From an uncultured Bacilli bacterium (GTDB lineage: Bacteria > Bacillota_I > Bacilli_A > RF39 > UBA660), in the NCBI GenBank assembly GCA_947586655.1, contig CANPXR010000018.1:1-18072 (forward strand): a DNA stretch of 18,072 nt. Direction: 5' to 3'. How positions within the stretch are numbered: position 1 is the first letter of the stretch; the number at the start of each line of letters is the position of its first letter. The position numbers were made by a program, and so were the translations under genes. The notes beneath the pieces were generated by a model, which was not told the origin of the DNA, searched no databases, and saw nothing but the letters and a program-made list of their open reading frames with translations. Shown here piece by piece: positions 2,296-18,072 of the stretch.

Positions 2296-2304
2296 ATTAT
2301 ACCA
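2296..2304 (-). promoter_or_regulatory. Candidate extended -10 promoter (TGGTATAAT) for yvlD-like/lgt/trxB
   Basis: The minus strand reads ...GTTATGGTATAATTAAATCGGTGATAACATG. A TGnTATAAT element sits about 16 nt upstream of the ATG at 2280. The -35 region is weak. AT-rich background lowers specificity. Confidence 0.4.
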
Positions 2305-2340: not shown

Positions 2341-3291
2341 TTAAGTAAGTTTGTAGAACTGCTTTGCGTTTTCTGATAATATTTTTTCACAATCACTATA
2401 TGTCCATGTGTTTCTTACTCTATCTAAAGAGTTATAATCAATGTTACCATGGCAGTCTACATTCCAATTATAATCTAAATCAAATAGTAATTTATCTGGA
2501 GATACAAGTTTTTTTAAAATATTAAGATATCCTAAAGAAAAATATTCATTTTTAGGAACACAAACTTTGTATGGATCAAGTGAAATATCAAGATCAGGTC
2601 CTAACCCAATCATTATATTTTCACTATTGTTTACTATTTTTATAGCCTCTTTATCTAAGCATGCACCGTGATTTAAAGTGCCTCTTAAGTTATTATCAAT
2701 TAAAAATTTAACCCATGAATTAGGACAACATTTATTTCTCCAGAACTTAGTTTCCACCCCATACCCGTCATCATAATTATAAACTGATGTATGTAGAATT
2801 ATTGGAACGTTATAAAATTTAAAAATTTCTATTAATTCCGGTTTAACATCTTCTTTAAAAAAACCACTACTAAAGCCATGAAATTTAATCGCCTTAGGTT
2901 TTGTTTCTTTTATTAAATTATCAACGTAATATGGTTCATCTAAGACGCCATGAATCATTGGAACAAAATGTATTTTTGTTTTTGTATTTGTTTTAGATAT
3001 CAAATCAAAGTAATATTTATTTACCTTTTCATACGGATTACATAATATATTTTCTTTTAATATTTTTCCTAAATAATTAACTTGTTTATAATAATATATT
3101 TTTTCGTAATTATCATGCTCCCACATTAAGGCACACGTACTATTATTTTTATCTTTTAAAACAGGCCAAGGCATCGGCATTAAAAGTCCAATATCAATCT
3201 TATTAAGTACGCAAAAGTCATCATAATCAAATAATGCCGATTCCCCAAAATAATAATCTTTCCCAATGTGACTATGTGCATCAATTATCAT
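2341..3291 (-). CDS. Metal-dependent TIM-barrel amidohydrolase (PF04909/Amidohydro_2-like)
   Basis: N-terminal MIIDAHSHIG (HxH metal motif), then later His and Asp residues (IHFVPMIHG, KFHGF, ILHTS, GPDLD). Start set at the ATG at 3291, preceded by GGGGGAATAAT. The ORF-track start at 3507 is an out-of-frame read-through of the peptide gene. Confidence 0.8.
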   Translation of the reverse strand: MIIDAHSHIGKDYYFGESALFDYDDFCVLNKIDIGLLMPMPWPVLKDKNNSTCALMWEHDNYEKIYYYKQVNYLGKILKENILCNPYEKVNKYYFDLISKTNTKTKIHFVPMIHGVLDEPYYVDNLIKETKPKAIKFHGFSSGFFKEDVKPELIEIFKFYNVPIILHTSVYNYDDGYGVETKFWRNKCCPNSWVKFLIDNNLRGTLNHGACLDKEAIKIVNNSENIMIGLGPDLDISLDPYKVCVPKNEYFSLGYLNILKKLVSPDKLLFDLDYNWNVDCHGNIDYNSLDRVRNTWTYSDCEKILSENAKQFYKLT

Positions 3292-3309
3292 ATTATTCCC
3301 CCATATTAG

Positions 3310-3337
3310 ATAAAAATAAGGACAAAACAAGTCCTTA
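3310..3337 (-). terminator. Hairpin plus U-tract directly after the precursor-peptide gene (likely leaky terminator/attenuator)
   Basis: The minus strand reads UAAGGAC-UUGUUUU-GUCCUUA followed by UUUUUAUC. The 7-bp stem (3 GC pairs) includes the peptide TAA stop. The amidohydrolase SD and ATG follow within about 20 nt. Confidence 0.6.
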
Positions 3338-3517
3338 TTTAATATAAATTTTTCTAACTTCTTTAATATTTTCGTTTTTATCTTTACATCCTTTACAAGT
3401 AGTATTGCAAGAGCCGACACCACCACCACATGCACAACTACTACATACTGAGGCATAAGTTTCCATTGAATTACGTAAAATTTTGTTTTTTGCCTCATTC
3501 TTGTCAAAAAATTTCAT
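3335..3517 (-). CDS. 60-aa cysteine-rich RiPP precursor-like peptide (six Cys within 20 residues)
   Basis: MKFFDKNEAKNKILRNSMETYASVCSSCACGGGVGSCNTTCKGCKDKNENIKEVRKIYIK. The SD is AAAGGAGGTGA, 5 nt before the ATG. The ATG overlaps the TGA of the rSAM gene (ATGA). A hairpin follows the stop. Confidence 0.75.
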   Translation of the reverse strand: MKFFDKNEAKNKILRNSMETYASVCSSCACGGGVGSCNTTCKGCKDKNENIKEVRKIYIK

Positions 3518-4860
3518 TGTCTCACCTCCTTTACTTTTTCAACACTATCTTTACTAATTAGATAACCACTTTTTAACAACCACCTTAACGTTTGTTTGGT
3601 GTGAATACAAAAAGGTTTATCTAGTGCCTGTCTACTTCCAAATAATGCCTCAGATTGAATGGCGCATCCACCACCACAAATGAATAAAGCTCCGCACCCT
3701 AAACATTTTTTATTGTTTAAAGTACACCGTTGTTTCCAAAATTTGATTTCATCAGAACATAATATTTTTTGTATTGAATCTTTATTAATGTTTCCTATTA
3801 CATATTTATCAGTTTTCAAGTATCCATGGCAAATACACACGTCTCCATTCGGCTTTATTGCTAATTGATTAGCTCCAATTGCCCCACAATCAGAAAATTT
3901 AAATTCGTTATTATAAAAACTGTCTATTTTTCTAATAATTCTTCCATCATATATATCGTTTTTAATTAAAATATTATGTGACTTAATAAGAAACTTACAA
4001 GCTCTTTTATAATAGTTTTCCCAATTACGATCATAATTGGTATAGTGGTATAAATTATAAAATATACTTTTTACTCCTAATTGTTTTAACCAAATAAGTA
4101 CTTTATCCTGATTGTCTAACAAATCCTCAGAAACCGTTATTGACAAACCATACTTACAGTTTTGAACATCAAGCATTGGAAATTTTTTTATCACCTCATC
4201 ATAAACACTTTTGTTACTAGTCCTATAAATTCTGTTTTTATCATTCAATTCTTTTGGTCCATCTATGGATACTCCTATTTCTACCTTATGCTTAGATAAA
4301 AATCTAATTTTTTCTTCGTCTAGTAAAGTAGCATTGGTAACCATTGAAAAATCAATTGGTGAATTTAATTCTACTGATTTATTTAAAATATATTTGATTA
4401 TTTCCCAATTTACTAAAGGTTCACCACCATAAAAAATAACCGAACCTCTTAATTTATTATCCTTTAAATAATTAGTATATTTAATTAAAGCACTTTGCGC
4501 TGTTTTTTTGGACATATTTACTTCTTTTTTATTGTTGAACTGACAATTTTCTATAAAACAATATTTACAACCTAAGTTACAAGCCGAGCTCAAAATAAAA
4601 TACATGATATTAATTTTCCCAGTTACTTTTTCATATCTATTTTTTACTATTTCTAAAGCTTGTTTATCCTTATGATAATCATCAACATAAATACCAATTT
4701 CTTTTAATTTTAATATTTCCTCTTGCGGTAGGTTAATATTTATTACATCATCATATTTCTTCTTATTTAAATAGACCACATCCATTATCAAAGAATTATA
4801 TATTGCATATAAATCTTTTTCTAATTTTACATGGTGAAAAAATTTAGATAGCATCATCAT
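3514..4860 (-). CDS. Radical SAM / SPASM-domain peptide maturase
   Basis: CNLGCKYC (CxxxCxxC) about 95 residues from the N-terminus, GGEPL motif, and a C-terminal SPASM signature CLGCGALFICGGGC (CX2CX5CX3C, nt 3664-3705) plus upstream Cys pairs. About 90 N-terminal residues precede the cluster motif, consistent with an RRE-like leader-binding domain. The start is ambiguous among GTG 4866 and ATG 4860/4857/4854. The SD AGGTGA (4863-4868) favours one of the ATGs. Confidence 0.9.
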   Translation of the reverse strand: MMMLSKFFHHVKLEKDLYAIYNSLIMDVVYLNKKKYDDVININLPQEEILKLKEIGIYVDDYHKDKQALEIVKNRYEKVTGKINIMYFILSSACNLGCKYCFIENCQFNNKKEVNMSKKTAQSALIKYTNYLKDNKLRGSVIFYGGEPLVNWEIIKYILNKSVELNSPIDFSMVTNATLLDEEKIRFLSKHKVEIGVSIDGPKELNDKNRIYRTSNKSVYDEVIKKFPMLDVQNCKYGLSITVSEDLLDNQDKVLIWLKQLGVKSIFYNLYHYTNYDRNWENYYKRACKFLIKSHNILIKNDIYDGRIIRKIDSFYNNEFKFSDCGAIGANQLAIKPNGDVCICHGYLKTDKYVIGNINKDSIQKILCSDEIKFWKQRCTLNNKKCLGCGALFICGGGCAIQSEALFGSRQALDKPFCIHTKQTLRWLLKSGYLISKDSVEKVKEVRQ

Positions 4861-5320
4861 AATCACCTAATTTATCTTCCATAATGATTTTACTTGTCTT
4901 AAAACCCATTTTTTCATAAAGTTTAATCGCCCGTAAGTTATCTTTACATACCTTTAATTCTAAGTAACTTAACCTATTACCTTTCGCCCACTTTTTAAAG
5001 CCATCTATAAGGGATTGTGCCACACCATTATTTCTAAATTCCTCTTCCACGTATAAAGCATCTAAAACCCCTACTTTTTTTATTTTAGAATCCCCGTTAT
5101 TTTGGATGTATCCATAAATGTAACCCACTATCTTTTTACTTTTTTTTGCGATTAAAAGGCACACGTCTTTATTATCAAAAAAATTTTCGTAAAGAGATTT
5201 TACAACGCAGTTTTCATTTATGTTCTTATCATATTTTTTTTCATCAACTATTAACTTCGTTAATAAATCATTTGCATCTAAAGCTAATTCATGATCTGCC
5301 TTGATTATATCTATGTTCAT
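4844..5320 (-). CDS. GNAT-family N-acetyltransferase
   Basis: About 158 aa with the acetyl-CoA motif A (LYVEEEFRNNGVAQSLI) and C-terminal LYEKMGF. Start set at the ATG at 5320, 5 nt after GGAGG. The ORF-track TTG at 5338 is unlikely. The 3' end overlaps the rSAM start region. Confidence 0.85.
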   Translation of the reverse strand: MNIDIIKADHELALDANDLLTKLIVDEKKYDKNINENCVVKSLYENFFDNKDVCLLIAKKSKKIVGYIYGYIQNNGDSKIKKVGVLDALYVEEEFRNNGVAQSLIDGFKKWAKGNRLSYLELKVCKDNLRAIKLYEKMGFKTSKIIMEDKLGDYDDAI

Positions 5321-5400
5321 ATTTGCCTCCACACTCAAATTATATATTTTAGATAGCGAAATATTTGTCGCTTATTATCTTACAAAATAGGTATATTCAT

Positions 5401-5817
5401 CTACGACTCTTTTATTTCTTCCACACCGAGGCAATAAGCAAATCTTATAAGCGTTTCTTTCTTCTTAATATAGTAATACCCTAAAGAAAAACCAAGGTTG
5501 TTAGCTATAAATCTATCATCATAATTATCTTCTTTATCAAGGTATGTCCAATATATAATTTTTCTTTCCTCAGTTGTTAATCTGTTAAAGGAGGATCTTA
5601 CGAGGTTAATGAAAACAACTCTATTTTTCAATTCATTATCATCCTTTTTCAAATAAATATTGTTATTTTGATAAGTATTTAACTGCTCTAATAAAAAGTT
5701 ATCATTTATCTTTGAATCTGATTTACTATCAACTGAAAGACTATAATAATTATATTTTTCTATTACTTCTTTTACGTTTTTCTTAGTTTTTGGCCAATCA
5801 ACACATGTCGTTTTCAT
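5401..5817 (-). CDS. ArpU-family (phage late-activator-like, sigma region-4-like) transcriptional regulator
   Basis: 138 aa. The N-terminal KTKKNVKEVIEKY and the C-terminal RLTTEERKIIYWTYL...IANNLGFSLGYYYIKKKETLIRFA match my recollection of the ArpU family layout. AAAGGAG lies 10 nt before the ATG. Confidence 0.65.
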   Translation of the reverse strand: MKTTCVDWPKTKKNVKEVIEKYNYYSLSVDSKSDSKINDNFLLEQLNTYQNNNIYLKKDDNELKNRVVFINLVRSSFNRLTTEERKIIYWTYLDKEDNYDDRFIANNLGFSLGYYYIKKKETLIRFAYCLGVEEIKES

Positions 5818-5894: not shown

Positions 5895-5934
5895 ATAAAA
5901 AAATAAAGTAAAAGTTACATTAACCTCTACTTTA
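5895..5934 (-). terminator. Intrinsic terminator after uvrA
   Basis: The minus strand reads UAAAGUAGAGGUUA-AUG-UAACUUUUACUUUA (14-bp stem including two G-U pairs) followed by U7. It begins about 30 nt after the uvrA stop. Confidence 0.65.
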
Positions 5935-5963
5935 TTATTATCCGTTATTTTTAAAAACACTTG

Positions 5964-8913: not shown

Positions 8914-9798
8914 TTATTTTTTATAAAAAGTCATTCTCATTGCATGAGACTTTGTTTCAAATAGACAATCTTTATGTTGGTCCACAAACTTAGGAATTAT
9001 ACCATTTTTGCCAATATCTATACGATTTTTATATTTTATAGCACCATAACCAACCTGCGCTAAACCATCACCTGTTAAATTATCATTTAAAGATTTTAAT
9101 AATTTTAAAAAATCATTTAACTCTTGTGCACTAAAATAACTACTTATATTAGAAAATAATATTGCTGAGTAGCATTCGTTACCCAAGTATTTTTTTAAAT
9201 CAAATAGACTACAATCGATAAAATCAATCGATTGTATTTGTTTTAGTTTTTGTTTTAATTCTTCATAATTTTTTCTTGTTAAATAGCCCGATAGTTTAGG
9301 ATTATATTTAATATTTACTAAATTAAACTTTTCACCAGCCGAGGCATTCTTCATAAATTCATAAAGCATTTCAAAAAACCTGGCGCAAGGATAGTTTAAG
9401 TTAGAACACACCCTGTTATATAACTTAACGTCTGGATCGGTCAAAAAACCACCTGCTATAGAATTCGAAAACGATACGTTTACCTTATATAATTTTTCAA
9501 ATTCTTCATACGACAAACAATCAATTGCCACAAATTTAAATATAGCAAAATACTTTGCTAAGTGATTAATATCAAACATCTTAACGTAAGGTGCACCATT
9601 TAATATTGCCATTAAAGCTTGATCACCTGATGCCGTCACGGTTAAAACCCCTTTACTAGAATCGAGACAATTAAATATGTCACTTAAGTGCTCATTTGTA
9701 AACGGATAAATACTATCATAAGTATCAAAACAAGGAGCGAATAGCTCTTTTCCAACTATCGCTAATCCTTGCAATTGCAAAAAGTCTTCATCTACCAT
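8914..9798 (-). CDS. Hypothetical protein, possibly DUF3419/BtaA-like SAM-binding fold
   Basis: Intact 294-aa ORF. The segment VLTVTASGDQALMAILNGAPYVKMFDINHLAKYFAIFKFVAIDCLSYEEFEKLY resembles the DUF3419 pattern as I recall it (ItSaG..aL...L....v.avDlN..q..l.eLK.aa...L.yeeF). The SD is weak, and an in-frame TAG lies immediately upstream of the ATG. Confidence 0.55.
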   Translation of the reverse strand: MVDEDFLQLQGLAIVGKELFAPCFDTYDSIYPFTNEHLSDIFNCLDSSKGVLTVTASGDQALMAILNGAPYVKMFDINHLAKYFAIFKFVAIDCLSYEEFEKLYKVNVSFSNSIAGGFLTDPDVKLYNRVCSNLNYPCARFFEMLYEFMKNASAGEKFNLVNIKYNPKLSGYLTRKNYEELKQKLKQIQSIDFIDCSLFDLKKYLGNECYSAILFSNISSYFSAQELNDFLKLLKSLNDNLTGDGLAQVGYGAIKYKNRIDIGKNGIIPKFVDQHKDCLFETKSHAMRMTFYKK

Positions 9799-14725: not shown

Positions 14726-15634
14726 TTAACTAATATTTCTTGTTTCTCCATTATAAGTTCCACTTGTTTGGTAAGCATCGGTAACTAAAACTACGGCCTT
14801 TGAATCAATTCGTTCAATACCCTCACTAACTTTAAAATATTCACTTGTAGGAACTACACACATAATAATTTGATCCTTTTTATTTGTGTAACCGCCTCTT
14901 GTTTCTAGTAAAGTAATACCTAATTTTAGTTCATTTAACAAGTAATCACACACTCTTTCATCCTCATCAGTCGTAATATAAATGGCTTTGTTTTGGGATA
15001 TTCCTAAAACTACCTTATCTACCATTATATTCATTATGTATAGTACTATCATCGCATACAAAACCCTAGTCCATCCAAAGAAAAAACCACCAACTAAAAC
15101 TATTATTCCATCAATAACAAGCATAGACGTACCAATTGATACTTTAAAATACTTAGAGACAATCTGATTTAATATATCGGTGCCGCCCGTCGTAAAACCA
15201 CTTTTAAAAACTATACCAGCAGCAAATCCTACGCAAACACCACCTATTATTGTAATTAAGAGTAAATCTGAATTATCTATTAATATGTATTCACCTATAT
15301 TAGACGTAAGTTTTACAAAAATAGGAAATAAGAGTGAACCAACAATCGAATTCAACGTTTGCTTTTTTCCAAGTAGAAAAAAACTTAAAGTAAGGAAAAA
15401 CACGTTCAAAATTAATATCATTATGGAAGGATCAACAAAATTTTGAGTAATTATCGATATGCCACTAGCACCACCATAGACAATGTTATTCTTAAAAAAG
15501 AATAGATTATATGATACTGCATATATGATTACCGCAATCACTAATAAAAAATATCTTTTTAATAGGTGTGTTTTTTCAACTAATTGAAGAATATTTTGCC
15601 TTCTTTTTTCACTAAGTTTCCTAAACAGTTTCAT
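14726..15634 (-). CDS. YitT-family membrane protein (YitT_membrane + DUF2179)
   Basis: Five to six TM helices with GGASGISII and GFTTGGTDIL motifs, plus a soluble C-terminal DUF2179-like domain. It occupies the same position as yvjA in the Bacillus prfB-yvjA-ftsEX arrangement, as I recall it. Confidence 0.85.
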   Translation of the reverse strand: MKLFRKLSEKRRQNILQLVEKTHLLKRYFLLVIAVIIYAVSYNLFFFKNNIVYGGASGISIITQNFVDPSIMILILNVFFLTLSFFLLGKKQTLNSIVGSLLFPIFVKLTSNIGEYILIDNSDLLLITIIGGVCVGFAAGIVFKSGFTTGGTDILNQIVSKYFKVSIGTSMLVIDGIIVLVGGFFFGWTRVLYAMIVLYIMNIMVDKVVLGISQNKAIYITTDEDERVCDYLLNELKLGITLLETRGGYTNKKDQIIMCVVPTSEYFKVSEGIERIDSKAVVLVTDAYQTSGTYNGETRNIS

Positions 15635-16728
15635 TTTCTTTTTCCTTTCTTAAATAGCTATCAATAAATTCATCTAAGTTCCCATCTAATACCTTACTAA
15701 CATTTGAAGTTTCATATCCGGTTCGATGATCTTTTACCATTGAATAAGGGTGAAGCACATAACTTCTAATTTGAGAACCAAACTCTATACCACTATTATT
15801 ACTTTTTAACATATCAACCTTGCTTTTTTGTTTTTTTAATTCTATTTCATATAGCTTACTCTTTAAAACCTTTAAGGCAATCTCTTTGTTTTTTATTTGG
15901 CTTCGTTCATTTTGACACGTAACTACTATTCCAGTTGGTATATGAGTTACTCTTACCGCACTATCAGTAGTGTTAACTCCTTGACCTCCTGCGCCGCTGC
16001 TTCTATATACATCTATTTTTATGTCCGAATCCTTTAACTCTATATCAACGTTATCATCAAACTCTGGAATAACGTCAACGGCCGCAAAAGAAGTATGTCT
16101 ACGCTTATTTGAGTCAAATGGTGATAACCTTATCAAGCGATGTACCCCTTTTTCAGATTTTAAGTATCCATATGCATAATTACCTTTAACTATGCACGTA
16201 ACACTCTTAATACCAACTTCCTCCCCCGTTTGCTCGAAAGTTATTTCATATTTATAACCTTTTTTATCAAAATATTTTAAATACATTCTAAGAAGCATTT
16301 GCGCCCAGTCTTGACTTTCGGTACCACCAGCACCCGCATGAATTTCAAAAATAGCATTTTTTTCATCAAATTCACCATTTAAAAAGGTTATCATTTCTTG
16401 TTCTTCTAATAATTTATTAGTTTCTATAAATATCTTTTCAAATTCCTGATTAATTTGCTCATCCATTTGATTTTCTTCAAATTCCTTAAATTGTTCAAGT
16501 ACTTCAATATTCCTTTTAATCTTTATTAAAGGACTTATTATTTCCTTTAATTTACTCATTTCTTTTGTTAAATTTTCGGCATTATAGGTATCATTCCAAA
16601 TTCTAGAATCTGATAATTTTTTATTTATTTCATTAATTTTTATTTCTTTTGCCGAAACGTCAAAGACAACTCCATATTTTATTAAACTTTGATTCTAAAA
16701 TTAATATATCTTTATTAGTAATTTCCAT
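15621..16728 (-). CDS. prfB: Peptide chain release factor 2, requiring a programmed +1 frameshift
   Basis: Frame 0 runs from the ATG at 16728 through 22 codons (MEITNKDILILESKFNKIWSCL) to TGA at 16660-16662. The +1 frame continues from GAC at 16661 to TAG at 15621. It contains the SPF tripeptide (RLSPFD) and GGQ (SGAGGQGVNTT). The joined product is about 368 aa. Confidence 0.95.
16659..16674 (-). promoter_or_regulatory. RF2 autoregulatory +1 frameshift site (GGAG-N4-CTT TGA C)
   Basis: The minus strand reads TGGAGTTGT CTT TGA C. The canonical CUU UGA C slippery/stop context has an internal SD-like GGAG 4 nt upstream. Confidence 0.9.
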
Positions 16729-16745
16729 ATAATCACCTATTGTTA

Positions 16746-16754
16746 ATTATAACA
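16746..16754 (-). promoter_or_regulatory. Candidate extended -10 promoter (TGTTATAAT) for prfB
   Basis: The minus strand reads ...TTTTTATGTTATAATTAACAATAGGTGATTATATG. The TGnTATAAT element ends 17 nt before the prfB ATG. No good -35 is present. Confidence 0.4.
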
Positions 16755-16889
16755 TAAAAATATAATTAAATAAATCAAACAATATTAAAAAATACTGGGA
16801 TTATTTTCCATGGCATTTAACTTAAGATATATGCTAATCTTTAGTATAAATATTAATATTACATAATTATGATTAAATATTTTTTTACT

Positions 16890-16939
16890 TAAAAATTGAA
16901 AAAAATAAAAATGAGCTATCACCATTTAATGCTAACTCA
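16890..16939 (-). terminator. Possible terminator after the 104-aa ORF
   Basis: The minus strand reads UGAGUUA-N14-UAGCUCA (7-bp stem with one G-U pair and a large loop) followed by UUUUUAUUUUUUCAAUUUUU. Confidence 0.35.
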
Positions 16940-17012
16940 CTTTTTATCATCTTCTACTTCAAACTACCTCATTTTTTAACGGTAACAAATTATATAAAAT
17001 TCTTAATTTTAA

Positions 17013-17327
17013 TTATTTCGTTTTTTTTGTAAAGGTACATCCAAAACTATCTGATTTATCATCATCACTAAATTTTTTATTTTTTAATTCTAATAATATC
17101 ATTTTAGTAAAACCCGTATTATGATCAATTAAATATTGAACTTCAATAATACTCATTTTATCTAAAAGATTTGGTTCATTCGCTGCGCATAATATTTCTT
17201 TTAATGTTAAATTACCATTACCAAATTCACCATTTCTATACTTTTGCATTATACTGTTATATTTCTCAATATTAACAGTTAACGTTTCTTTTTTATTACC
17301 TTCTAATTCCAAATGACTCATCTCCAT
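17013..17327 (-). CDS. Hypothetical protein (orphan, no recognisable family)
   Basis: 104-aa ORF with a Lys/Asp-rich tail. There is no convincing SD before either ATG (17327 or 17321). Coding status is uncertain. Confidence 0.4.
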   Translation of the reverse strand: MEMSHLELEGNKKETLTVNIEKYNSIMQKYRNGEFGNGNLTLKEILCAANEPNLLDKMSIIEVQYLIDHNTGFTKMILLELKNKKFSDDDKSDSFGCTFTKKTK

Positions 17328-17440
17328 ATATATAAATTCTATTTAATTTAAAATTATTGCACACCTAAATTTACACTTGTTACTTATCCCAATAGTTTTT
17401 ATATTTCTTACCAAACCCACATGCTCCCTACTTTTGAGTA

Positions 17441-17601
17441 TATATAGTATATATAGTATTACCGTTATTATCGGTATTTCAAGGGATTCTAGAGCAGGTA
17501 ACAAATAGTATTTATGTTATTTATAATATTATCAATATTTCTTTAAATACTGGTCTTGGCACATTTTGTATTTATAGTATTATTAGTATTATTGATATTA
17601 T
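17441..17601. repeat. Iteron/operator-like repeats
   Basis: The 14-mer TATTATYRRTATTW occurs three times at 60-61-nt spacing (17466-17479, 17527-17540, 17587-17600). ATAGTAT occurs four times (17444, 17453, 17505, 17574), with a fifth partial TAGTATT copy at 17584. Confidence 0.4.
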
Positions 17602-17612
17602 AAATATTTATT

Positions 17613-17669
17613 AAATGAGGACAATTTGAGGAAAATTTCCTCATTTATACCTCGTTTTCAAAAAACGAG
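17613..17669. other. Cluster of hairpin-forming inverted repeats downstream of the KilA-N-family gene
   Basis: Arm C, TTTCCTCATTT (17636-17646), can pair with either AAATGAGGA (17613-17621) or TGAGGAAA (17627-17634). A separate 8-bp hairpin CTCGTTTT-CAA-AAAACGAG lies at 17651-17669. None has a clean minus-strand U-tract. Confidence 0.35.
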
Positions 17670-17712
17670 AAAATTTTCAACATTCGTTTACCAACTAAAT
17701 TATATAATTTTT

Positions 17713-18072
17713 TTATTGTTCAATTAACTTATTCTCATTAACTTGTTTTTGTAACAATTCTAAATCTTTAATACTTTTGTTATTTTTTAAAGTTTCCATT
17801 TGTCTTCTTGCTGAATTGTTTAATCTAATAAGTCTTTCTCTTTGAGGAACTTTTTCTTCAATTAATTCTGCATTTGTATTTTGTAAATTATTAAGTATTA
17901 CTAAATGTAATAGATCAGCATAGTCCCTTATATTTCCATCTTCTGCAAGTTCTGGATTACTTTCTCTCCATTCTTTTGCAGTCATTCCAAATAAAGCAAC
18001 GTTTAATACATCAGCTTCTTCTGCATACACAAATTGTTTTTGTTTTTCAGTTAAAGTTGGAACTATGCATTT
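17713..18072 (-). CDS. KilA-N-domain family protein, C-terminal part (5' end lies beyond the right edge)
   Basis: The frame is open to base 18072 (KCIVPTLTEKQKQFVYAEEADVLNVALFGMTAKEWRESNPE...GNIRDYADLLHLVILNNLQNTNAELIE...RERLIRLNNSARRQMETL). This matches the conserved C-terminal half of the roughly 270-aa KilA-N-domain proteins as I recall them. The ORF-track start at 18030 is an internal GTG. Confidence 0.75.
   Translation of the reverse strand, partial: KCIVPTLTEKQKQFVYAEEADVLNVALFGMTAKEWRESNPELAEDGNIRDYADLLHLVILNNLQNTNAELIEEKVPQRERLIRLNNSARRQMETLKNNKSIKDLELLQKQVNENKLIEQ

Follow-up and report, generated by a model that had tools for sequence, protein, structure and literature searches.

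We found that an 18,072-nucleotide stretch of DNA from an uncultured Bacilli bacterium (contig CANPXR010000018.1 of assembly GCA_947586655.1), referred to here in its full length as the window, carries a compact cassette of four minus-strand genes. The genes encode a GNAT N-acetyltransferase, a radical SAM (rSAM)/SPASM enzyme with an RRE-like N-terminal domain, a 60-amino-acid (aa) peptide with six cysteines, and an amidohydrolase-fold protein. Their content, their conservation, their domain and cluster motifs, and their linkage are direct observations. [quoted passage not shown] We put at about 0.6 the probability that it is a chromosomal, horizontally mobile RiPP pathway of the thioether type (ranthipeptide- or sactipeptide-like), in which the hydrolase trims the peptide and the GNAT acetylates it to give a conserved physiological or signaling product.

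A previous reading of the DNA, made from its letters only (the sequence-only reading), had described an islet of five co-directional genes, these four and an ArpU-like regulator, and had taken it for a RiPP system. We found all five open reading frames (ORFs) on the minus strand where that reading had placed them. The RiPP interpretation gained support from the RRE-like domain, a full SPASM domain, and a conserved precursor. It also held on the two points at which computation could have gone against it, namely, the company that the rSAM relatives keep and the conservation of the small ORF.

The four genes form a module that recurs in five genomic contexts

We searched 185,579 species genomes with a profile of the rSAM enzyme and then ran tblastn with all window proteins; the loci recovered carry L numbers. 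The order GNAT-rSAM-peptide-amidohydrolase recurs with tight spacing in five contexts. One is the uvrA...lgt context of the window, which is shared by L001, L002, and L091 to L093, and the others are those of L081, L088, L096, and L097. L001 (from an uncultured "Mollicutes" metagenome-assembled genome [MAG]) and L002 (from a "Bacilli" MAG) are fully syntenic with the window, in the order uvrA-ArpU-GNAT-rSAM-peptide-hydrolase-yvlD-lgt, and L091 to L093 are three more loci of the uvrA...lgt type, from metagenomes. In these loci, uvrA is 91 to 93% identical to that of the window, whereas the islet genes are only 57 to 72% identical. Since the window order repeats in them and its four-gene core repeats elsewhere, the arrangement is not a chance one.

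The rSAM enzyme is 65% identical to that of the window in L081 (neighbors Sua5, AAA-ATPase, and dockerin genes), 57% in L088 (neighbors APH, Ham1, and others), 64% in L096, where a large serine recombinase gene lies immediately downstream, and 58% in L097. In all four, the GNAT gene is again immediately 5' of the rSAM gene. The ArpU gene and the PF04020 gene, which adjoin the cassette in the window, are missing from all four, and therefore the conserved module is four genes.

The sequence-only reading had proposed asking by genome neighborhood whether rSAM homologues co-occur with a Cys-rich ORF, the hydrolase, and a GNAT. We found that they do: the GNAT and hydrolase genes are present in five contexts, and a Cys-rich small ORF, homologous or similar, lies beside or near the rSAM gene in 13 of the 14 loci whose rSAM is at least 41% identical. 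The relatives at 41 to 52% (L003 to L007 and L083 to L087) retain just the rSAM gene and the Cys-rich small ORF, with a GNAT gene also in L003. There, the small ORF is usually directly downstream and sometimes on the opposite strand, at a distance of as much as about 1 kb. Across the five contexts, the module is accompanied by no exporter, C39 protease, or immunity gene.

Recombination genes were seen within a few kilobases of several cassettes: large serine recombinases (L096, 6164 to 7747; L003, 1873 to 3526), a tyrosine integrase (L083, 10397 to 11593), and transposase fragments (L086, 8660 to 9653). They are consistent with a module that moves between genomes. The 5' side of the cassette in L088 (1 to 5441) is a resistance-type run of genes encoding an MccF-like S66 peptidase, a RimL-type GNAT, an S51 peptidase, a HAD protein, an ABC-F protein, a PNP/UDP phosphorylase, and an APH.

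We rejected phage or prophage cargo, which the ArpU gene and a PF04020 "holin" might suggest. The closest rSAM in IMG/VR is only 30% identical, and the cassette is flanked by genes of the housekeeping type (trxB, lgt, uvrA, uvrB, ftsEX, and prfB). Anti-phage defense was rejected as well; PADLOC gave only generic viperin/rSAM-core matches.

The precursor has a variable leader and an almost invariant six-Cys core

The peptide gene (3335 to 3517, minus strand) has a near-perfect ribosome-binding site, AAGGAGGTGA, just upstream. Its start overlaps the rSAM stop codon in an ATGA (4 nucleotides [nt]); this overlap and that between the GNAT and rSAM genes (about 11 to 23 nt), both pointed out earlier, are real. 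The peptide can be divided into a variable leader (residues about 1 to 21), an invariant six-Cys core (about 22 to 47), and a tail with a conserved Tyr58. The leader, of some 20 residues, is Lys-rich and has a semiconserved (L/F)(D/N)K at positions 4 to 6. The core, (A)SVC(N/S)SCACGGG-x3-CNTTCKGCKDK, is almost invariant, and C25, C28, C30, the GGG, and C37-N-T-T-C41-K-G-C44-K-D46 are invariant. The tail closes with the nearly invariant Tyr in …(V/I)Y-x-K. Distant members retain SVC[NS]SC … TCKGCxD … (V/I)Y.

In comparisons of the core codons between distinct lineages, synonymous divergence (pS) was 0.5 to 0.98, near saturation, versus a nonsynonymous divergence (pN) of 0.02 to 0.11, which gives a pN/pS of about 0.05 to 0.15. 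This codon pattern shows that the ORF is translated and under strong purifying selection. The earlier worry that the small ORF might not be conserved as a protein is answered by a core in which pN is far below pS. A word-indexed search found 37 clusters of the precursor family. When 1.84 billion representatives were searched exhaustively with a profile, 13 clusters had an E value of ≤1e-3. With only 13 representative clusters among so many, the family is real but narrow. Its members are all "hypothetical," and one is from Candidatus Aphodocola excrementigallinarum. No family among the Pfam and NCBIfam models matched the peptide.

The lack of a family assignment would fit a small ORF that is spurious, or that encodes an unmodified Cys-rich peptide binding a metal or Fe-S cluster, with the rSAM enzyme acting elsewhere. 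We consider this very improbable. Translational coupling ties the start of the peptide to the rSAM stop behind a strong ribosome-binding site, the low pN/pS speaks against it, 13 of 14 clade loci have the ORF, and the rSAM enzyme carries an RRE-like peptide-binding domain.

A hairpin followed by a U-run spans the peptide stop codon (3311 to 3340, minus strand; −11.2 kcal/mol) and would act as a terminator or attenuator ahead of the hydrolase gene. A hairpin and then T-rich sequence occur at or just past the peptide stop in 9 of 9 loci examined, and the stem sequences differ. A conserved terminator or attenuator at this place would yield more precursor transcript than downstream-enzyme transcript. 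One database protein, P0215 (85 aa), is a called ORF that joins the rSAM C terminus (…CICHGYLKTNKYVIG…) to the peptide core; the fusion is probably a frameshift or assembly artifact in one contig.

Here the leader varies and the core is invariant, which is opposite to what bacteriocins usually show and resembles the precursors of SCIFF, mycofactocin, and PQQ. This bears on whether the product is instead a secreted sactipeptide or ranthipeptide of the bacteriocin type, exported by an unlinked exporter, with the GNAT and the hydrolase serving as self-immunity or prodrug enzymes that acetylate and then deacetylate it. Mobile bacteriocin loci often have recombination genes nearby, as do L096 and L003 (recombinases), L083 (integrase), and L086 (transposase fragments), and the GNAT-amidohydrolase pair recurs without an rSAM gene among APH, CAT, and extra aminoacyl-tRNA synthetase (aaRS) genes in L090, L101, and L109. 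However, down to about 57% rSAM identity the leader varies but the core stays almost invariant. The leader is not of the double-glycine type, and the five contexts contain no ABC/C39 transporter or immunity membrane protein. A bacteriocin is therefore unlikely in our view. A core that is almost invariant and the lack of an exporter or immunity gene make a conserved physiological or signaling peptide likelier. The SCIFF-like, nonbacteriocin flavor that the sequence-only reading had sensed thus agrees with the near-invariant core, the variable leader, and the absence of a conserved exporter in five contexts.

The rSAM enzyme has a complete SPASM domain and an RRE-like domain

The rSAM gene (3514 to 4866, minus strand) encodes a radical SAM/SPASM peptide maturase that matches PF04055 (E = 2.5e-15) and PF13186 (E = 2e-8). 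Its real start is probably the ATG at 4854 to 4860, behind AGGTGA; homologues open with M-x-LS. The cluster motif CX3CX2C (C96, C100, and C103) is invariant in 18 sequences. The seven-Cys SPASM motif is complete (C327-x13-G341-x4-C346; C388-x2-C391-x5-C397-x3-C401; C420), and its residues are invariant or nearly invariant among the 18 homologues. In the AlphaFold model (pLDDT, 88), residues 10 to 81 form a beta3-alpha3 domain with RRE topology (strands 10 to 16, 19 to 24, and 31 to 33; helices 35 to 42, 48 to 56, and 64 to 81; pLDDT, 85 to 96). A Pfam search for a match to PF05402 found none in this enzyme.

The best NCBIfam match was the FibroRumin maturase TIGR04136, with 248.3 bits over the full length (cutoff, 400), followed by PapB (NF047865), with 165.8 bits over residues 88 to 410 (cutoff, 340). 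Below PapB came nif11, anSME, QhpD, SCIFF, HxsB, DynA, and CcpM models, none near its cutoff; the SCIFF maturase TIGR03974 scored 123 bits (cutoff, 425), and the anaerobic sulfatase maturase TIGR03942 scored 131 bits (cutoff, 349). The sequence-only reading could not place the system in a named family, and the model search agreed, since no NCBIfam maturase cutoff was reached and the peptide matched nothing. We rejected a sulfatase maturase identity: TIGR03942 stayed below its cutoff, and no context has a sulfatase neighbor. The closest homologues are thus not sulfatase maturases lacking a Cys-rich ORF, which 13 of the 14 clade loci have.

Among PDB sequences, the nearest were CteB (E = 2.8e-43), 8VPO (E = 5.8e-37), and anSME. 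The nearest folds in Foldseek were CteB (E = 3e-20) and TigE (8VPO; E = 5e-20), in full-length alignments that include the N-terminal domain. TigE and anSME are structurally as close as CteB, and the enzyme reaches the cutoff of no thioether family. Both findings would also fit a RiPP pathway in which the rSAM enzyme does other chemistry (C-C or C-O cross-links, conversion of Cys or Ser to formylglycine, epimerization, or cyclopropanation) and the cysteines are disulfides or metal ligands; the invariant N38-T39-T40, K42, K45, and D46 of the core would be possible targets. Against this, the one feature that runs through the wider clade as a whole, FibroRumin precursors included, is Cys richness, and the nearest named families are maturases of Cys-rich peptides. 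We regard nonthioether chemistry as a rather unlikely alternative.

The fourth gene encodes a predicted binuclear metalloenzyme of the amidohydrolase fold

The gene downstream of the peptide (2341 to 3291, minus strand) encodes a predicted amidohydrolase-superfamily TIM-barrel metalloenzyme of 316 aa, starting at ATG 3291 (MIIDAHSH) behind GGGGGA. We rejected a long TTG-start ORF (2341 to 3507) that would overlap the peptide gene, because homologues and the ribosome-binding site put the start at ATG 3291; therefore, the two genes do not overlap. This start, that of the rSAM gene, and that of the GNAT gene were all revised on reading the sequence.

The protein had been called a PF04909-like amidohydrolase. 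The resemblance stands at the level of the fold, by AlphaFold and Foldseek, and fails by score: against PF04909 (Amidohydro_2) the protein reached 11.7 bits (E = 0.22; gathering threshold, 26.4) and is not a member. Weak matches to PF04909 were found in 9 of 21 family members (best E = 3.8e-6). The family comprises 58 clusters, all unnamed, one of them with a precomputed PF04909 hit. Comparison with PDB sequences by phmmer and by profile search gave only noise. The AlphaFold model (pLDDT, 95) has an extra beta-sheet insertion at residues 43 to 81. Its best Foldseek matches were all amidohydrolase-superfamily barrels (E about 1e-7; TM, 0.5 to 0.6), including 2f6k, ACMSD and related decarboxylases, dihydroorotases, and the diiron oxygenases TruffO, SfbO, and AibH.

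Residues D4, H6, H8, H114, D118, K136, H138, H167, H208, D271, and D273 are invariant. The C-terminal ends of model strands beta1, 4, 5, 6, and 8 carry H6/H8, K136, H167, H208, and D271, so that the fold shows the amidohydrolase arrangement of HxH after beta1, Lys on beta4, His on beta5 and beta6, and Asp on beta8. Ligands in the pattern HxH/K/H/H/D typify binuclear (carboxylated-Lys) amidohydrolases, dihydroorotase among them. The invariance of this pattern in the modeled barrel suggests a binuclear metal site. The statement that the locus has no protease is probably wrong in spirit, since this protein is the best candidate for a peptidase.

Homologues at 45% identity or more were found only in this cassette. 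Those at 30 to 41% adjoin other rSAM and small-peptide genes in L089, L098, L107, L112, and L115. L089 (199 to 6798) has a hydrolase homologue, a 37-aa precursor (MSNTDLMTSLENLSEEDAKLVSLSIVCDRCM), three SPASM rSAMs, and one B12-binding rSAM, followed by ArgRS, and is a different RiPP-like cluster. L112 has an rSAM gene with a 48-aa four-Cys peptide gene downstream, beside the hydrolase homologue, and L115 is similar. In L098 (3894 to 10018; the P0170 contig), the homologue occurs with two rSAM genes, and in L107 (19 to 7758) it occurs with three rSAM-like genes. Both are flanked by truncated class I aaRS-like genes (a 363-aa CysRS catalytic domain and GluRS-like pieces), and aaRS-like genes, rSAM genes, and hydrolase homologues recur together in these two loci.

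Three further loci contain a 33 to 37% homologue in a conserved block without an rSAM gene (L090, 4677 to 7273; L101, 1099 to 9810; L109, 1083 to 9853). The block runs from APH-like, short TrpRS/TyrRS-like (PF00579), CAT, and 5'-nucleotidase-like genes to the amidohydrolase gene and on to genes for a YgjV-type membrane protein, a RimJ/L-type GNAT, and two TyrRS-like proteins. In content it resembles an island for resistance or detoxification, or else a pathway for a small molecule.

The aaRS-like genes beside distant hydrolase homologues are one reason to ask if a small cofactor or metabolite is built on the peptide as its scaffold, as in mycofactocin, PQQ, and the pearlins. The rSAM enzyme would then modify a residue (for example, in the Tyr58 region), the hydrolase would excise the fragment, and the GNAT would cap it. 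The strict linkage of a metal-hydrolase and an acyltransferase to the cassette is compatible with this, as are the invariant core, the nearly invariant Tyr58, and the lack of an exporter, protease, or immunity gene. However, it is a Cys-rich block of 22 residues that is most conserved, not a short terminal motif, and the length of the C-terminal tail varies past the Tyr. The rSAM enzyme is also closer to maturases of Cys-rich peptides; MftC and PqqE are not among its best 25 NCBIfam matches. We think a scaffold quite unlikely.

The GNAT gene precedes the rSAM gene

The first gene of the module (4844 to 5320, minus strand) encodes a GNAT N-acetyltransferase of 158 aa that matches PF00583 (E = 6e-19). 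Its ORF spans 4844 to 5338; GGAGG sits 6 nt before ATG 5320, which we took as the start. The best NCBIfam match was RimI, at 52 bits, under the cutoff of 86.

A proposed pathway and its weight

From these observations we infer a pathway with thioether chemistry, a peptidase role for the hydrolase, acetylation, and a conserved role for the product. The 60-aa precursor would be made in excess, having the strongest ribosome-binding site and a leaky terminator behind it. Its leader, with (L/F)(D/N)K, would be bound by the RRE-like domain of the rSAM enzyme. That enzyme, equipped with one SAM cluster and two auxiliary clusters in its SPASM domain, would take hydrogen from acceptor residues. Thioethers of the ranthipeptide or sactipeptide kind would join these residues to some of the six core cysteines or to all of them. 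The amidohydrolase-fold enzyme, with its predicted binuclear site, may then trim the leader, the C-terminal tail, or both, analogously to PurAH. Finally, the RimI-like GNAT would acetylate the new N terminus (A22 and S23 are candidates) or an invariant lysine.

Several points weigh against this pathway. SPASM enzymes of the same fold also make C-C cross-links, cyclopropanes, and formylglycine (anSME). No sequence link between the hydrolase and PurAH could be detected, PurAH is outside the best 50 fold matches of the hydrolase, and those matches include decarboxylases (ACMSD) and diiron oxygenases (SfbO and TruffO), so hydrolysis is not guaranteed. The homologues in L090, L101, and L109, in the company of GNAT, CAT, APH, and aaRS genes and with no rSAM gene, suggest detoxification or immunity rather than a peptidase. 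The rSAM relatives at 52% identity or less manage with neither the GNAT nor the hydrolase, which makes both accessory. An exporter could lie elsewhere in the genome.

A broader proposal joins these threads. The unnamed hydrolase family, which lacks a reliable Pfam or NCBIfam assignment, may be a new, dedicated class of RiPP-processing metalloenzyme that unrelated rSAM pathways have recruited repeatedly (this cassette, L089, L098, L107, L112, and L115) and that, together with the GNAT, would make an N-acylated, trimmed, cross-linked, invariant six-Cys peptide with an intracellular or signaling role. This product, kept by purifying selection in uncultured gut Bacilli with small genomes, would be a second "SCIFF-like" conserved peptide. 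We offer this tentatively, as the less probable way to read the data.

Boundaries and setting of the islet

The window is an AT-rich (GC content, about 0.22 to 0.36) piece of Bacilli chromosome of the housekeeping kind, and every gene lies on the minus strand. Its genes are a trxB-like gene, lgt, a gene for a PF04020 (YvlD-type) membrane protein, the five-gene islet (ArpU-like regulator, GNAT, rSAM/SPASM enzyme, 60-aa six-Cys peptide, and amidohydrolase-fold protein), and uvrA. Past uvrA there are a DUF3419-like gene, uvrB, a gene for a PcsB-like M23 peptidase, ftsX, ftsE, a YitT-family gene, and prfB.

The ArpU-family transcriptional regulator (5401 to 5817, minus strand; AGGAG ribosome-binding site) matches TIGR01637 with 47.7 bits over residues 6 to 134, above the 43.1 cutoff, and phrog_248, a "transcriptional activator." Its gene is present in L001, L002, and L091 to L093 at 64 to 67% identity and is missing from L081, L088, L096, and L097. 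Membership of the conserved module, as the five-gene description implied, was not borne out by a gene found in one of five contexts. It is a lineage-specific addition and plausibly a local regulator of the cassette.

Both boundaries that the sequence-only reading had drawn are present. Upstream, the intrinsic terminator of uvrA (about 5897 to 5936, minus strand) folds into an AU-rich stem of 16 bp that includes G-U pairs and has a U-run behind it. Its folding energy was −14 kcal/mol (z = −4.4), and 0 of 200 shuffles were equally stable. A terminator scan missed both AU-rich hairpins, this one and the one at the peptide stop, and RNA folding then confirmed them. Downstream, an extended −10 element, TGgTATAAT (2296 to 2304, minus strand), can be read before the yvlD-like (PF04020) gene (1843 to 2280), which is missing from the other cassette contexts and travels with lgt, not with the cassette. 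A sigma-70 promoter scan was uninformative in the AT-rich DNA of the window (26 sites versus 31 expected). Scans of the window for riboswitches, RNA elements, and tRNAs found none.

Elsewhere in the window, a 294-aa gene with a partial DUF3419 match (8914 to 9798, minus strand) is placed between uvrA and uvrB. The region from 16560 to 18072 has a GC content of 0.20 to 0.24 and contains small ORFs (17013 to 17327 and 17713 to 18030) with no Pfam match. The truncated RF2 ORF (15621 to 16559) has a PCRF domain that begins at profile position 32, and 34 codons upstream of this ORF and in frame with it is a CTTTGAC (16659 to 16665, minus strand), which is the classical programmed +1 frameshift site of prfB.

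Significance and comparison with known systems

An rSAM/SPASM enzyme with a Cys-rich peptide is a known theme, and most such families are chemically uncharacterized; that of the window is missing from the curated family libraries searched. The invariant core and variable leader argue for a conserved cellular role over antibiotic warfare. To our knowledge, the role of the comparable SCIFF peptides is still poorly understood. The linked binuclear-type amidohydrolase would be a candidate for the "missing" peptidase, and since the same hydrolase family lies near several other rSAM peptide clusters, its characterization could help annotate those. The hosts are uncultured gut Bacilli, and a compact cassette of about 3 kb makes heterologous expression a practical route to the conserved product.

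FibroRumin (TIGR04136/TIGR04135) is the best-scoring family for the window rSAM, aligned over its full length including the N-terminal domain, and its substrates are also Cys-rich peptides, about 50 to 60 aa long and conserved in their C-terminal tails. The clade at about 33% rSAM identity is bona fide FibroRumin (from Ruminococcus, Selenomonas sputigena, [Eubacterium] yurii, Lachnospiraceae, and others). In contrast to a member of that family, the window rSAM is only about 33% identical and scores 248 bits against a cutoff of 400. FibroRumin loci have one to four precursors upstream of the rSAM gene and a double ABC-ATPase downstream and lack the GNAT and amidohydrolase, whereas the window has a single precursor, downstream. 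Four window-family peptides gave no match to TIGR04135 (cutoff, 45 bits) even at an E value of ≤10, while FibroRumin control precursors scored 87 to 93 bits. By these profile results, the window system is a sister family of FibroRumin and not a member. We know of the FibroRumin system from bioinformatic description only, and neither that name nor the core string CNTTCKGC was found in the searchable literature. In L009 to L026 (for example, L013, 7394 to 9487, and L011, 7548 to 9617), a FibroRumin-type rSAM gene is followed directly by the large double-ATPase gene, whose product is 26 to 28% identical to UvrA over about 640 residues and is by this likeness a UvrA-like or ABC-F-like protein, not a membrane exporter.

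With SCIFF and its maturase CteB (PDB 5WGG/5WHY), the cassette shares six cysteines in a short peptide, an rSAM/SPASM enzyme with an RRE, a highly conserved core, and a pair that stands with no exporter or protease; CteB is also the best PDB match in sequence and fold. The two differ in that the window rSAM scores 123 bits against the SCIFF cutoff of 425, the window precursor is downstream whereas that of SCIFF is upstream, and the motifs are not the same. The window cassette also adds a GNAT and a hydrolase, and its range is narrow (uncultured gut Bacilli), whereas SCIFF is Clostridia-wide.

The maturase of the freyrasin-type ranthipeptides, PapB, which forms thioethers from Cys to acceptor side chains, is the second-best NCBIfam match. 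Its model leaves the N-terminal domain of the window rSAM unmatched, and unlike its substrates, the window core has no repeated CX3D motif. TigE (PDB 8VPO) is the joint best structural match, with the highest TM-score (0.72) over the full length including the N-terminal domain, but is only about 21% identical to the window rSAM. It is a SPASM cyclopropyl synthase that acts on Ile/Val-containing repeat peptides, not on Cys-rich ones.

PurAH, an amidohydrolase with a dinuclear zinc site, cuts off the follower peptide of bottromycin (PMC10885120). PurAH/BotAH resemble the window protein in being RiPP peptidases of the amidohydrolase superfamily; the window protein has HxH/K/H/H/D, and the window precursor has a C-terminal extension. 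They differ in having no detectable sequence similarity to the window hydrolase, in not being among its best 50 fold matches, and in belonging to another RiPP class. The resemblance would be a functional one only. A search of the literature for "ranthipeptide" together with amidohydrolase or acetyltransferase gave no paper of apparent relevance to the cassette.

Systems of this sort are already known, and what is new is the family, with its single downstream invariant-core precursor and its obligatory pair of a GNAT and an amidohydrolase.

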